Part shown: positions 37,554-42,608 of the stretch, one piece after another
How positions within the stretch are numbered: position 1 is the first letter of the stretch
Layout of the letters: each line of letters opens with the position of its first letter
From: Candidatus Helarchaeota archaeon
Lineage (GTDB): Archaea > Asgardarchaeota > Lokiarchaeia > Helarchaeales > RDOG01
DNA length: 64,000 bases
NCBI GenBank assembly: GCA_019058315.1
Contig: JAHPZH010000009.1
Coordinates: 1 to 64,000, forward strand
Reading direction: 5' to 3'
Made by a program: the position numbers and the translations under genes
The notes under the pieces: generated by a model
The model's database searches: none
The model's input: only the letters and a program-made list of their open reading frames with translations
Told to the model about the DNA's origin: nothing

Positions 37554-38789
37554 TTAAATCAATAAATATGGATTAAATTCAAATTTATTTATTGAATTTA
37601 AATAATAAATATATAAAGCTTGAATTGTAAACATTGTTGCAGCAGAATTTACATGCATTTTTTTCACTCCATTATCATTACAACCGAATATTATTCCATA
37701 ATTCGCCTTTGGATCTTCATCTTTACATTGATAACTTAATAAATGATGAATCGCTTTTTCTAAATTACCAACCTCAAATTTAATATTTTCTATATATGAT
37801 AACAATAACCACATTCGTATTACTTGAGCAACAACATCTGATCTTTCATCTGGTAAGAATTTTTTATCTACGTACCAAGCAGGAAATCCCCCATTTTCAA
37901 ATTGGTTTCTTAATATCCATTCAACTGCTCTTTTAGCACTTTTAATATATTCCTTATTTTTTAAAATAAGACCAACACAAAATAGCCCTTCTGCTGCATA
38001 AATATGCGGATGAGTATGTGTATCACCTTTTTTCAGAAAATTGATAAATCGACCATCTTCCTTTTGTAGGGTTAATGCCCAATCACATACTTCAATCGCA
38101 CTTTTTTTAAAACTATCCATTTGCGTCACTGTATAAAGATTTAATAATCCAATAGCATTCTTAGTATGGAAAGGCTCGGATTGAGTGGACCATTTTCCAT
38201 ATCCGTCAATATAAATTTTATTATCTGCGTCATAAACTGCAAAAAAAGAACCATCCTCCTTCTGCATATCGTTAATTAACCAGTTACCAACTTTCTTAGC
38301 CATATCAAGATATTTTTTGTTTTTTGTTTGCTTATATAAATTAACAAAACCATTCAAACACATTGCATTGTCGAATGAAAATAGCCAAGGTCGAAAGGAT
38401 TCCCTGTGATACAAATAACGGTCATTAAAAATCCCATCTCGACTAATTTGTGCAAAATTTATTAAGTAGTCTCCTGCTTTGATAGCACGGTCAATCAAAG
38501 AAGGATCCGGTGTAATATGATTTAAATAAAGCAGTGTGGTTATACCATATCCAGTTATTTCAGAATAAGCAAAAGGATAGTTTTTCTTACTTAAATCATA
38601 CCAACATTGGAATGATCCCAGTATACAATCTTGCTCCTTTTCTATACATTGAATTCCAGAATTTAATAACCAGGATTTAATGGATTGAATTTTATTTAAT
38701 ATAAAATCTTTATCTAACTTACCAGGGATAACCATAACGTCTTCCTCTTTCTTTATCCATAGTTTCTTGCCATGGATAAGGGTGGTCAA
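37554..38789 (-). CDS. (alpha/alpha) toroid protein of glycan loci (YSEITGY motif; possible epimerase/lyase); start probably ATG 38735
   Basis: Repeated A...WL...Q..DG.F helical-hairpin units. Confidence 0.6.
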   Translation of the reverse strand: MTTLIHGKKLWIKKEEDVMVIPGKLDKDFILNKIQSIKSWLLNSGIQCIEKEQDCILGSFQCWYDLSKKNYPFAYSEITGYGITTLLYLNHITPDPSLIDRAIKAGDYLINFAQISRDGIFNDRYLYHRESFRPWLFSFDNAMCLNGFVNLYKQTKNKKYLDMAKKVGNWLINDMQKEDGSFFAVYDADNKIYIDGYGKWSTQSEPFHTKNAIGLLNLYTVTQMDSFKKSAIEVCDWALTLQKEDGRFINFLKKGDTHTHPHIYAAEGLFCVGLILKNKEYIKSAKRAVEWILRNQFENGGFPAWYVDKKFLPDERSDVVAQVIRMWLLLSYIENIKFEVGNLEKAIHHLLSYQCKDEDPKANYGIIFGCNDNGVKKMHVNSAATMFTIQALYIYYLNSINKFEFNPYLLI

Positions 38790-39546
38790 TAATACCTAAT
38801 GGACATTTGATATCTCTTATATTTCTAACAACCTTTGCGGGATTTCCCATAACAATAGTTTCGGGTGGTACATCACGGGTTACTAGAGAGAGAGCTCCAA
38901 TTATAGCACTTTGTCCAATTGTGATTCTGGGAAGAAGAACTCCTATGCTTCCGACTATTACATAATCTTCGATAATAGGACCTTTTATACATTTACCACA
39001 TGGTGGATGTAAATCTGTCGCTGCTCCAGAGTATGGAAACCACCAAGTAAAATTTTTTACAACAGTTGTATCTCCCAAGTGGTTAAGATTAATAAATCTA
39101 TTATGATCTCCGATTGTTATAGGTCCCCAAAATTCAGAATGGTTTCCAATATAATTGTTGTAACCAATATTACATCCTTGTCTCAGCATTACCCAAGAAC
39201 CCGTCTCAAATTTATCCCCTATTTCACAATCTGCATAAATTATAGTATAAGAACGAATATTTGCATTTTCTCCAATTTTTAAAACGGGATTGTCATATCC
39301 TTCAGGGTCTTGTAAATATCCGAGTCGATCCTTTTTTGTCTCATCCTTATGAAAATATTCAATGTACTGTCCTAAGGTAACAAAATCTGCTATTACAGAA
39401 TTCGAACCGAGATGAACATTTGATTTTATTATAGAATTATAACCGATTCGGCAATTATCTCCAATAACAGCACCGTCTTCAATAATTACACCCGGTTTTG
39501 TTTTAACATTTTTACCTATTTCTGCATCTTTACTTATTAGATTCAT
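38719..39546 (-). CDS. Hexapeptide-repeat (LbH) acyltransferase, paralog 1
   Basis: Hexapeptide repeats, DLHPPCGKC, VMGNPAK. Confidence 0.88.
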   Translation of the reverse strand: MNLISKDAEIGKNVKTKPGVIIEDGAVIGDNCRIGYNSIIKSNVHLGSNSVIADFVTLGQYIEYFHKDETKKDRLGYLQDPEGYDNPVLKIGENANIRSYTIIYADCEIGDKFETGSWVMLRQGCNIGYNNYIGNHSEFWGPITIGDHNRFINLNHLGDTTVVKNFTWWFPYSGAATDLHPPCGKCIKGPIIEDYVIVGSIGVLLPRITIGQSAIIGALSLVTRDVPPETIVMGNPAKVVRNIRDIKCPLGIIDHPYPWQETMDKERGRRYGYPW

Positions 39547-39688: not shown

Positions 39689-40516
39689 TTAATCGGGGTA
39701 ACCATATCTTTTTCTTCTATTCTTATCCATTTTTTCATACCATGGATATGGGTGGTCAATAATACCTAATGGACAAGTGATATCCTTAACATTCTTAACC
39801 ACTTTAGCTGGATTACCTACAACAATAGTTTCTGGGGGAACGTCTTCTGTTACTAAGGAACATGCTGCTACAATAGCATTTTTTCCCACCTTTAGTCTTG
39901 GAAGAACTAAAGAAAAACTTCCAATAATTGCATAATCCTCAATTATTGGTCCTTGTAAGCATTTTCCACAAGGTGGATGAAGGTCCGTAGCAAGTGTGGC
40001 ATAAGGGAGAAACCAGCAACAATTTCCAATATCACTTGTATCTCCAATATGGGCACATGCGATAAACCTATTATGATCTCCGGTTTTTAAAGGACCCCAA
40101 AATTCACAATGGTTTCCCAAATAATTATTATTACCAATTTTGCACCCATTTCTAATAACTGTCCAGCTACCCGTTTCTAGTTTATCTCCAATTTCGCAAC
40201 CCGCATAAATTAGAGTATTGGCACGAATTTTTGCTTTTGTTCCAATCTTCAAAATAGGATTTTTGTATGTTTTTGAATTTTTATAATATCCAGTTTTTGT
40301 CTCATCTTCTCCATTTATAAAATAAGTTCCGATATATTCACCTAAAATTACATTTGCGCCAATATATGAGTTAGAACTTAAGTGAACATTTTTCCTTATA
40401 ATTGTATTATGACCAATCTCTACATTATCCCCAATAATTACACCATCTTCAATAATTACATTGTGCCCCATATATACGTTTTTTCCAATTTCTGCGTCTT
40501 TACTAATAAGATCCAT
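39689..40516 (-). CDS. Hexapeptide-repeat (LbH) acyltransferase, paralog 2
   Basis: Same length (275 aa) and motifs as paralog 1. Confidence 0.88.
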   Translation of the reverse strand: MDLISKDAEIGKNVYMGHNVIIEDGVIIGDNVEIGHNTIIRKNVHLSSNSYIGANVILGEYIGTYFINGEDETKTGYYKNSKTYKNPILKIGTKAKIRANTLIYAGCEIGDKLETGSWTVIRNGCKIGNNNYLGNHCEFWGPLKTGDHNRFIACAHIGDTSDIGNCCWFLPYATLATDLHPPCGKCLQGPIIEDYAIIGSFSLVLPRLKVGKNAIVAACSLVTEDVPPETIVVGNPAKVVKNVKDITCPLGIIDHPYPWYEKMDKNRRKRYGYPD

Positions 40517-40654: not shown

Positions 40655-41668
40655 ATGAATATTGATTGTGTATTAAAAAATCGTGGTGCAATAAAAATGG
40701 ATAAGGATTTTTGGACTGGAAAAAGAGTATTAGTAACTGGCGCAGACGGTTTTATGGGCTCTCATCTTACTGAAAGACTCCTAAAATTAGGGGCTGAAGT
40801 TTCAATTTTTGTTAGAGGAAATTCAATAACAGGGACTACTCAATATGCAGTAAGGAATATAGATCACATAAAAGATAAATTAAAATCTATAATTACTGGT
40901 AATATTGCTGCAAATGATTCAATATTTTTAATGATGAAATCAGAACCTCAACATATTTTCCATTTAGCTGCTGATGCATATGTCCCAAATTCATTCGATC
41001 ACCCTATAGAAGTGATGGAAACAAATCTTATTGGAACCTTAAATGTGCTTCATACTGTTATGAATCTAAAAGAAATTGAACAATGTGTTTGTACATCTTC
41101 AAGTGAAATTTATGGAACTGCTCAATATGCTCCAATTGATGAAAAACATCCTTTAAATGGAACATCACCATACGCCGCATCAAAAATTGCTGCAGATAGG
41201 TATTGCTATGCATATTGGAACACATATGGACTTCCAATTGCTACAATTAGACCATTTAATACTTTTGGGCCACGTCATACTTATGATGTAATTCCAAAAT
41301 TCATTAATTTAGCATTAGAAGGGAAAAATATTACAGTTTATGGCAGTGGGGAACAATCTAGGGATTTTACATACGTCTCTGATATGATAGAAGCTTTTTT
41401 AGTAATGGGAGGAAATAAAAAAGCAATTGGTAAAGCCATAAATTTTGGGACGGGAAAAGATTACTCTATTAATTATATTGCAGAAAAAATTGTTGAATAT
41501 AGTAATACAAAATCGAAGATTGTTCATATTGAAAAAAGATTAGCAGAAGTTCAAAGATTAATATGTGATTATTCAAAAGCAAAAGAGCTGTTTGGTTGGG
41601 AGCCGAAAGTTTCAATTGATGAAGGCTTGAAGAAAAATATTGAATGGGAAGTTAATCGCAGGAAATAA
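40655..41668 (+). CDS. NAD-dependent nucleotide-sugar 4,6-dehydratase/epimerase (SDR)
   Basis: GADGFMGS, TSSSEIYG, YAASK, RPFNTFGPR. Confidence 0.9.
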   Translation: MNIDCVLKNRGAIKMDKDFWTGKRVLVTGADGFMGSHLTERLLKLGAEVSIFVRGNSITGTTQYAVRNIDHIKDKLKSIITGNIAANDSIFLMMKSEPQHIFHLAADAYVPNSFDHPIEVMETNLIGTLNVLHTVMNLKEIEQCVCTSSSEIYGTAQYAPIDEKHPLNGTSPYAASKIAADRYCYAYWNTYGLPIATIRPFNTFGPRHTYDVIPKFINLALEGKNITVYGSGEQSRDFTYVSDMIEAFLVMGGNKKAIGKAINFGTGKDYSINYIAEKIVEYSNTKSKIVHIEKRLAEVQRLICDYSKAKELFGWEPKVSIDEGLKKNIEWEVNRRK

Positions 41669-41671
41669 TAA

Positions 41672-42061
41672 TCAAAAAAGTTGTTTTATTTCATCTTTTA
41701 GAAAAATCCAAACAATAATAAGTCCGATTAAAAACATAGTCCAGAACATCGAAATTAGTAAAGTGTATTTCCATCCCCAATCTTTTAAGTGATAAATAGA
41801 ATAAACTGCTGGTAGAGTTAAAATTCCTGCAACCAAAAAAAGAGGACCAAAAATATAATTTACTGTTACAATGATTAAATCAACAGGGACTGTAACATCA
41901 CCTATAAAAATTCCACTAGGAAAAAACATTTTCATAATTAAATTATCATCTATATTCGTAGTCCAAGCTATAATTACAATTCCTATTAATCCAATAGCAC
42001 CTAATAAATAAATTATCATAATTAAATTCAGTTCAAGTGATCGCTCTGGCATTTTTAACAT
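41672..42061 (-). CDS. Small hypothetical membrane protein
   Basis: Three to four hydrophobic segments. Confidence 0.6.
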   Translation of the reverse strand: MLKMPERSLELNLIMIIYLLGAIGLIGIVIIAWTTNIDDNLIMKMFFPSGIFIGDVTVPVDLIIVTVNYIFGPLFLVAGILTLPAVYSIYHLKDWGWKYTLLISMFWTMFLIGLIIVWIFLKDEIKQLF

Positions 42062-42118
42062 TCCTTTTATAAATTTTTTCTATTTTTGATTGAATTTTAA
42101 TATAAGAGGCTTTATCTT

Positions 42119-42162
42119 ACCATCAAATATTGTCTATTATTTTTACAATACTCTCATTTGAT
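42119..42162 (-). promoter_or_regulatory. Putative eukaryote/Loki-type SECIS element (kink-turn hairpin)
   Basis: AUCA-AAU-GA-GAGUAUUGU-AAAAAUAAUAG-ACAAUAUUU-GA-UGGU: AUGA/GA core, 9-bp upper helix, A-run opening the apical loop. Confidence 0.65.
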
Positions 42163-42169
42163 TCAATCA

Positions 42170-42442
42170 TCATAATATAATTCCATTTGCGCTAAGCACA
42201 AATAGAACTGCTATGACAGCAAACACCACAATTAGGATAACAATGGCTTTTCAAATCGGAGGGCGTTCACCTTTTATACCTGTATACATAATTAAAATTG
42301 CAGCAGTATAACCAAAGAGACAAAGCGGTCAAACATGTTTAAAGATCGTCATTGACATAATTTCAAACCCTATTTGATACACCATTGCCAGAATTCCAAT
42401 TGAAAATGTTGTTTTATCTTTTATTTCTATTTTATCAACCAC
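42170..42442 (-). CDS. Candidate small membrane selenoprotein (UxxC, DsbB/VKOR-like context); not in the ORF track
   Basis: One frame of 90 codons with 3 TM segments, interrupted only by TGA at 42331 (HV-U-PLC) and 42253; SECIS-like hairpin immediately 3'. Confidence 0.62.
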
Positions 42443-42608
42443 CTAAAATTTATCGTTATTCGTTATGAAAAACGGTTTATTAATTATTAAAAGGAGAAAA
42501 AAATAAATCTTTTTCTTTAACGTTTTTTTTAAGAATGTTAATTAAAATATAAAAAACAATTTAAATTACAAATAATTGATTAAAAAAAAAGAAAAAATCT
42601 GGTTAATA

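Follow-up and report, generated by a model that had tools for sequence, protein, structure and literature searches.

Does the apparent intergenic gap at positions 42119-42442 of a 64,000-nucleotide (nt) stretch of DNA from a Candidatus Helarchaeota archaeon (the window: GenBank assembly GCA_019058315.1, contig JAHPZH010000009.1, positions 1 to 64,000) hold a gene whose in-frame TGA codons specify selenocysteine (Sec, U)? The gap is occupied by a single minus-strand frame interrupted by TGA codons and followed by an RNA hairpin. Comparison with homologous loci indicates that this is very probably a real selenoprotein gene which annotation of this Helarchaeales-type Asgard archaeon has missed, and that it belongs to a family not described before. 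The elements of the locus on which this assignment turns are:

42173-42442, minus strand: putative coding sequence of a small membrane selenoprotein, 90 codons, GTG start assumed, three predicted transmembrane (TM) helices
42331-42329, minus strand: TGA codon 38, the predicted U of H-V-U-P-L-C, TGA at this place in 16/16 loci
42253-42251, minus strand: TGA codon 64, the second in-frame UGA, in a K/R-rich loop preceding TM3
42172-42167, minus strand: tandem TGA TGA, the probable true stop, 15 and 12 nt ahead of the AUGA of the hairpin
42120-42161, minus strand: candidate selenocysteine insertion sequence (SECIS) element of the eukaryote-like type I known as lokiSECIS, with AUGA, a 9-bp upper stem, an 11-nt loop, GA and a 3-bp lower stem

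The sequence is exactly as an earlier note on this DNA had described it: the frame from 42442 to 42173 on the minus strand contains no TAA, TAG or frameshift, its only in-frame TGAs are codons 38 and 64, and it ends in TGA TGA. Translation under table 11 gives just a 37-amino-acid (aa) open reading frame (ORF) for this stretch. Contigs from an independent study (runs X2 and X3) span the gene with all four TGAs kept and a single, synonymous in-gene difference, and two ENA contigs, L052 (94% aa identity) and L051 (80%), also keep all four; the TGAs are therefore not sequencing errors. The nucleotide that follows the codon-38 TGA is C, an uncommon context for genuine TGA stops in this genome (22 of 374 TGA stops of long ORFs).

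Homologues were sought by six-frame whole-genome searches of relatives, pattern scans of genome and metagenome collections, a 5.8-billion protein index, exhaustive HMMER of 1.84 billion (1.84e9) representatives, and upstream walking from homologues of the neighbouring gene. Sixteen homologous loci in total were found in metagenome-assembled genomes (MAGs) labelled Helarchaeota, Lokiarchaeota and Promethearchaeia and in sediment metagenomes; 13 of the loci encode distinct proteins, which share 33-82% identity with that of the window (alignment A5). The same-family relative of the window genome is a MAG labelled Candidatus Helarchaeota. On present sequences the family is found only in Helarchaeales-type Asgard archaea. 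Around codon 38 every locus (16/16) reads H-x-TGA-CCN-[CTN/GTN]-TG[TC], that is, H-x-U-P-[LV]-C, the family form of the U-P-L-C motif that the earlier note drew from the first UGA. The homologue check proposed for codons 38 and 64 thus returned TGA at 38 in all sequences and TGA, Lys, Leu, Trp or Ile at 64. Neither a Cys nor a true TGG form of codon 38 was found among the loci or in the HMMER search of the 1.84e9 representative proteins, which returned family members only. As expected of a selenoprotein, the UGA is kept in 16/16 loci, and the ratio of non-synonymous to synonymous divergence (pN/pS) is 0.16-0.32 across all segments, on both sides of it.

None of the 13 members matched a Pfam or NCBIfam family at E <= 0.001, NCBI's dedicated selenoprotein models included. 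Seven Asgard selenoprotein families have been charted across more than 400 genomes (Huang et al. 2024, PMC11227280); the window family is absent from these seven and from a 2026 table of prokaryotic selenoproteins (PMC13188914), in agreement with the proposal that it lies outside the known archaeal selenoprotein families. Asgard selenoproteomes were charted by homology to known families, and a family with neither Cys relatives nor a known domain would be invisible to that approach. In the database entries P0002, P0003 and P0007-P0009 the 'W' stands for a TGA translated with code 4, and calling TGA as Trp puts a W at each Sec or stop TGA, which hides the family from Sec/Cys-based selenoprotein searches. 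P0002, P0003, P0007, P0008 and P0009 derive from short ENA contigs (L051, L052, L067-L070). NCBI annotation of the relatives provides fragments only. One such entry, the NCBI MAG protein ACTSRP_22055 (P0004, 77 aa), equals the protein of locus L009 less 16 residues (LSILKHM-U-PLCAFGYT); the in-frame 48-nt gap between them takes out exactly the Sec motif and is either a deletion allele or an annotation device. Sec decoding via lokiSECIS is already known; what appears to be new here, judged from sequence, is the protein family, its membrane location, the apparent lack of a Cys form and the lineage-specific extra UGAs.

The hairpin behind the frame lies at 42157-42123 on the minus strand and reads AUGA, GAGUAUUGU, AAAAAUAAUAG, ACAAUAUUU, GA, in which GAGUAUUGU and ACAAUAUUU form a stem without mismatch around the loop AAAAAUAAUAG; a lower stem of 3 bp joins 42161-42159 to 42122-42120. 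The lokiSECIS described by Mariotti et al. (2016, PMC4989117) has AUGA, a 9-bp stem, an 11-nt loop whose first five nt are A-rich and whose last nt is G, usually with A before it; the stem is followed by GA, or in VhuU by AA. The element adjoins the stop, many such genes end in UGA, and a minimal distance between UGA and SECIS was proposed. A looser SECIS model is given by Huang et al. (PMC11227280). The window element agrees with the strict description at every point (9 bp, 11 nt, AAAAA...AG, AUGA_GA; PMC4989117) and, like published elements (PMC4989117, PMC11227280), sits in the 3' untranslated region (UTR) near a UGA stop. It differs from them in serving a family outside the seven Asgard families and in having a second small hairpin directly 3' of it.

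Conservation of the element bears out the claim of a eukaryote-type SECIS. The hairpin stands directly 3' of the stop in all loci except L051, and the arrangement of frame and SECIS is seen again at 12 other distinct loci of the family. All 13 distinct elements (13/13) have AUGA, followed after the stem by GA in 12/13 and AA in 1/13; 94% of the cells of the 9-bp stem are paired, compensatory changes occur at 9/9 stem positions, and the loops are A-rich and 10-13 nt long (mode 11). A four-sequence MAFFT seed showed double changes at 10 of 12 pairs, with 94% pairing vs 27-42% in one-strand-shifted controls. The covariance model (CM) built from four elements of the family, the check that had been suggested, located the hairpin immediately 3' of the ORF in each of the nine additional loci that carry one (9/9, 15-63 bits). 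When the same model was run on 149 kb of this genome's loci, its top non-self matches were two other SECIS elements, one after the gene of a protein with a G-C-U-U motif (28.6 bits) and one, with a GUGA core, after the NiFeSe hydrogenase large-subunit gene (18.3 bits); on the whole genome, with 150 of 11,694 first-look candidates scored, the window element alone was returned. Pattern matching alone is no evidence: the loose published eukaryote-like SECIS (eSECIS) pattern has 66 matches in the 64-kb window, and a strict lokiSECIS-like pattern has 23 matches in 11.6 Mb of strand of this genome vs ~21 expected in simulated sequence (~2/Mb). The weight rests instead on position, conservation and covariation. 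At this chance density, a strict match <=15 nt from the end of this very frame is improbable by chance (~1e-4).

The window genome (5.8 Mb, 12 contigs, ~28% GC) has the machinery that decoding would require, as the earlier note had asked to have confirmed: a tRNA-Sec gene (63.5 bits) adjoins SepSecS and EFsec (287 bits), a PSTK-like gene is present (E = 1e-49), and SelD is itself encoded with an in-frame TGA. The genome also has three FrhD/MvhD genes, each with one or two in-frame TGAs.

At the second in-frame UGA the family is divided. TGA stands at codon 64 only in the window and in L052, L051 and L072; the codon is TTA (Leu) in L068, the sister of L072, TGG (Trp) in L071, ATC (Ile) in L074, and AAA/AAG (Lys) in L067, L069 and a sister subclade whose proteins bear a C-terminal tail (the tailed subclade). 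A replaced conserved Trp was considered for codon 64 and rejected, the ungapped alignment placing the Trp of the subclade at 63 and Lys at 64. By the alignment, codon 64 is a variable site in a K/R-rich loop before TM3 at which UGA is lineage-specific, and its variety, together with TGA at codon 38 in all sequences, rules out a double Trp-to-stop pseudogene. Between the window and L051, codons 65-90 have a pN/pS of 0.20, with 5 of 14 changes non-synonymous (binomial P = 0.004), close to the 0.22 of codons 1-63, at a synonymous divergence (pS) of 0.43. The family-invariant Asn86 and a hydrophobic helix are kept past codon 64 in all four sequences with TGA there, including L072 with its 50% identity to the window protein. 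This purifying selection indicates that the stretch after UGA64 is translated by read-through, and between the two lengths that had been left open, 63 aa with one Sec or 90 aa with two, it favors the two-Sec form of 90 aa. Mariotti et al. argued for HdrA-VhuD that a 3'-UTR SECIS serves any upstream UGA (PMC4989117), and since it should, the residue inserted at codon 64 is most likely Sec.

The relatives also help to place the end of the gene. Their unambiguous TAA/TAG stops lie 12-31 nt ahead of AUGA, and the window TGA TGA, at 15 and 12 nt, falls within this range and is read as a probable true stop, consistent with the earlier suggestion that the terminal UGAs are too near the SECIS to be recoded. 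Candidate C-terminal Sec codons of other members lie farther off, 32-37 nt before AUGA. In five lineages (L009/L053, L050, L010, L073 and L076) the gene ends in [S/T/G/P]-TGA-GGN-(ACN)-stop with the TGA 32-37 nt from AUGA, in L067 a TGA 34 nt from AUGA precedes four codons and then TAA, and L066, which is nearly identical to L050, carries TGT-GGA-TAA in place of its TGA-GGA-TAA. That the Gly codon is conserved while the true stops behind it vary, and that Cys and TGA alternate in this pair, points to a C-terminal Sec, and it is reasonably probable that the Pro-rich tail of the sister subclade, ending in G-U-G-(T)-stop, carries this further residue.

Three helices are predicted by AlphaFold2 for a homologue from a five-sequence alignment (mean pLDDT, the predicted local distance difference test score, 73), matching the three TM-like segments read earlier from the letters. 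F26, H36, U38, P39, C41, F43, P61 and N86 are invariant, TM1 has an acidic residue (E27 or D) in all members of the family, and the invariant H-x-U-P-[LV]-C motif is located at the start of TM2. Lys and Arg average 1.5 in the N-terminus and 2.1 in loop 2, as opposed to 0.3 in loop 1 and 0.1 in the C-terminus (summed, 3.6 vs 0.4), and by the positive-inside rule this distribution predicts that U-P-x-C, His36, Asn86, the C-terminus and the G-U-G tail of the subclade face outward.

The motif had been likened to the redox centre of DsbB and VKOR, and membership of those families is not supported. The VKOR profile (PF07884) gave E = 4.3 for the window protein and 0.052 for one member, with bits far under the gathering score; no family member matched the DsbB profile. 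Foldseek against the PDB and VIA-wide returned generic three-helix matches only (small subunits of Mrp and complex I, designed bundles); Synechococcus VKOR appeared at E ~5 for the three-helix model, and VIA-wide gave nothing specific. What the family has in common with DsbB/VKOR is a small, all-helical protein with a redox-type xCxxC/UxxC pair that follows a short loop and sits where a TM helix is predicted to reach the outer side, but it has three helices rather than four, no second Cys pair, Sec for Cys and no evidence of a quinone site, and the resemblance to VKOR is thus best described as one of motif placement, not membership. The tailed subclade, for its part, recalls SELENOK, SELENOS and thioredoxin reductase in its Pro/Gly-rich tail, G-U-G-(T)-stop and 3'-UTR SECIS. 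SELENOK and SELENOS span the membrane with a single TM helix and have their tail in the cytosol, and thioredoxin reductase has a GCUG tail; the family, however, shows no detectable homology to these proteins, gave no SELENOK or SELENOS profile match and has three helices and a tail predicted to lie outside, and the window protein itself is tailless. With the DsbA-like and Prx-like selenoproteins of Asgard archaea (PMC11227280) it shares a thiol-redox UxxC motif, an eSECIS-like element and occurrence in Lokiarchaeia/Helarchaeales, but those are soluble thioredoxin-fold proteins with Cys homologues, whereas the window family is predicted to be membrane-embedded and has no thioredoxin fold, and no Cys form of it was found.

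We propose that the SECIS-bearing mRNA recruits EFsec with Sec-tRNA-Sec, so that Sec would be inserted at UGA38 and at UGA64, the latter having arisen in the window lineage at a variable juxtamembrane site, and that the SECIS-proximal UGAs (12-15 nt) would terminate translation to give a 90-aa, two-Sec product. Its N-terminus and loop 2 would lie inside, and the outer face of the membrane would bear the C-terminus, the Sec-x-x-Cys pair and the invariant His36 and Asn86. There the pair may cycle between selenol/thiol and selenenylsulfide, probably with a partner, as an analogue and not a homologue of the DsbB/VKOR CxxC. Such an outward-facing redox centre is the likeliest chemistry, at slightly less than even odds.

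Several points weigh against the proposal. No RNA run that holds the locus is listed among the public runs. The GTG start is assumed, and in L072 the corresponding position lacks a canonical start codon. The stability of the hairpin is unremarkable (z = -1.3), and the Rfam SECIS models had no match at E <= 10 on 41950-42500, where only chance snoRNA-like rows appeared; this miss is not counter-evidence, because the Rfam models evidently do not capture lokiSECIS. L051, a 616-nt contig 80% identical to the window protein, has no SECIS past the gene, its sequence diverging after TGA TGA, which could reflect a rearrangement, a distal SECIS past the contig end or a chimeric assembly. Positions 285-616 of L051 hold a Cys-rich, multi-CxxC ORF in place of the hairpin and the downstream partner gene. 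At codon 64, near-cognate read-through with Trp or Cys, or partial termination giving a 63-aa form, may occur in place of Sec insertion, and we infer the redox role from motif and topology, to which family and fold comparisons add no support.

How far do these points favor other explanations? That the frame is a pseudogene or chance opening, its TGAs true stops and its products short peptides at most, would fit a frame that is unannotated, that yields 37 aa under table 11 and whose relatives have fragmentary NCBI calls, but the retention of TGA at codon 38 across 13 distinct lineages, strong purifying selection before and after it, a conserved and covarying SECIS, the lack of any relative with TGG at codon 38 and a conserved order with the partner gene make it extremely improbable, and identities of 33-82% exclude assembly copies of one sequence. 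A reading as three short ORFs is, at best, no less improbable. Several short metagenome contigs of the family have been called with TGA as W, as they would be if TGA were a sense codon (Trp or Gly, genetic codes 4/25) and no selenocysteine were involved. In this genome, however, TGA ends 15% of the frames of at least 300 codons (TAA, 72%), table 11 leaves the neighbouring genes whole, with Pfam coverage over their full extent, and there is dedicated Sec machinery with known Sec positions in FrhD and SelD; with TGA a normal stop and the neighbours intact, a code-4-type reassignment is excluded, and a sense-codon reading without Sec retains hardly any probability.

Two further alternatives accept the selenoprotein and differ on its extent or its use. 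Translation might end at UGA64 in the window lineage, leaving a 63-aa, one-Sec, two-helix protein and a third helix as a decaying remnant; UGA64 is missing from most of the family, and Sec insertion is generally inefficient, so that some termination at this codon is likely. As a full account it is nonetheless unlikely, given that codons 65-90 evolve like the rest of the gene (pN/pS 0.20 at pS 0.43), hold no stops or indels, and still encode Asn86 and the hydrophobic helix in each of the four sequences with TGA at codon 64, the 50%-identical L072 among them. Somewhat less improbable, yet still doubtful, is a role in which H-x-Sec-P-x-Cys, the acidic residue of TM1 and Asn86 form a soft metal or metalloid site (Hg, Cu, Ni or selenium species) of the MerT/MerF or CPC type. 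His, Sec and Cys are classic soft-metal ligands, and MerT is, like the window protein, a small protein with three TM helices. In one subclade the module has a PadR regulator and an ABC exporter as neighbours, and the prokaryotic selenoproteins on record include putative mercuric transport proteins and metal ATPases that contain Sec (PMC13188914). Against a metal site, neither MerT (PF02411) nor any other metal family gave a sequence match, the context differs between clades, and no metal-resistance genes lie next to the gene in the window. The two-Sec membrane protein of 90 aa remains the reading we prefer.

The gene is accompanied by a second small membrane gene:

41672-42061, minus strand: partner gene for a predicted four-helix membrane protein of ~130 aa, 3' of the selenoprotein gene wherever the locus is long enough

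It follows the SECIS in the window, L048, L049, L050, L066, L071, L072, L073, L074 and L076. The partner protein, which has a G-G-F-x-A-G-D-T motif, belongs to no known family, and its 21 database relatives all come from the same archaeal groups and carry no Pfam domain; DUF2127 and DUF7144 are look-alikes with scores of 0.8-0.9, to be taken as leads only. Other neighbours vary by clade: the window and L072 have DUF362 and sugar-nucleotide genes, the tailed subclade has PadR, an ABC exporter and SfsA, and L071 and L074 have an M50 protease next to the module, so that the two small membrane genes constitute the conserved unit. Of the context described in the earlier note, the downstream small membrane protein is therefore conserved, while the Zn-ribbon gene and the glycan locus are not conserved neighbours. 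L072 shares its DUF362, epimerase and hexapeptide-transferase neighbourhood with the window. In the latter, two tandem paralogues of a 275-aa hexapeptide-repeat transferase (38719-39546 and 39689-40516, both minus strand) adjoin an NAD-dependent epimerase/dehydratase (40655-41668), and the same set flanks the module in L072.

The small hairpin already mentioned lies on the other side of the SECIS from the gene:

42102-42120, minus strand: second small hairpin, GUAAGA...UCUUAU, directly 3' of the SECIS, weak when taken singly and consistent in position alone

In a comparison with the equivalent place in 15 other SECIS elements, a hairpin of this kind, with a stem of 5-8 bp and in many cases a loop resembling CGCAA or GCAA, was seen 2-5 nt past the GA of every SECIS in the family and also 3' of the FrhD, FrhA, G-C-U-U and HesB elements of this genome. 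Its stems vary in sequence between loci with pairing retained, and it is absent from the published description of lokiSECIS.

Other elements of the genome were seen in passing. The SECIS of the FrhD gene at C11:675374 reads AUGA, UUCACAUCUG, AAAAAUUAA, UAGAUGUGAU, GA; the SECIS-like element 3' of a two-Sec FrhD (C5:665745-666113), at G000 C5 ~666190-666240 on the plus strand, has a UUGA core (UUGA, UCUUUGCAG, UAAAAGUUGAG, CUGCAAAGU, GA), and the FrhD gene at C11:388035 is followed by a hairpin with an A-rich loop and no UGA/GA core at all. At G000 C2 ~355651 on the minus strand (L059 ~2150-2589), an ORF of ~146 aa without a Pfam match has tandem in-frame TGAs (...TPDAG-C-U-U-NEID...) and is followed by a canonical lokiSECIS (L059 2110-2163), the UGA of whose AUGA is in frame and would act as stop; this is the G-C-U-U protein of the covariance search and, by its sequence, probably another undescribed selenoprotein. 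A further canonical lokiSECIS (9 bp, 11 nt, loop AAAAAAUUUAA) at G000 C2 ~186037 on the minus strand (L060) sits downstream of a HesB/IscA-like frame with S-U-C (...INGLQVFVDEDAAYF...).

The family would add a membrane-embedded, probably outward-facing member to the Asgard selenoproteome, of a kind that gene callers miss because the gene is split or translated with the wrong code. It also offers a natural series of spacings between UGA and a eukaryote-like SECIS: one Sec, then a further internal Sec, then a further Sec at the C-terminus, and true stops 12-31 nt away. A wider and for now rather speculative interpretation is that this is a Sec-obligate Asgard membrane family without a Cys form, in which extra Sec residues were gained lineage by lineage (codon 64; the G-U-G tail at 32-37 nt). 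If true, lokiSECIS acts like the eukaryotic element, recoding UGAs beyond ~30 nt while nearer UGAs terminate, a spacing rule that bears on the origin of the eukaryotic Sec system, and the G-U-G-tailed forms could be an archaeal counterpart of eukaryotic proteins of the SELENOK/SELENOS type. Lastly, this genome holds more selenoprotein genes than current lists give, and the same is probably true of Helarchaeales in general.

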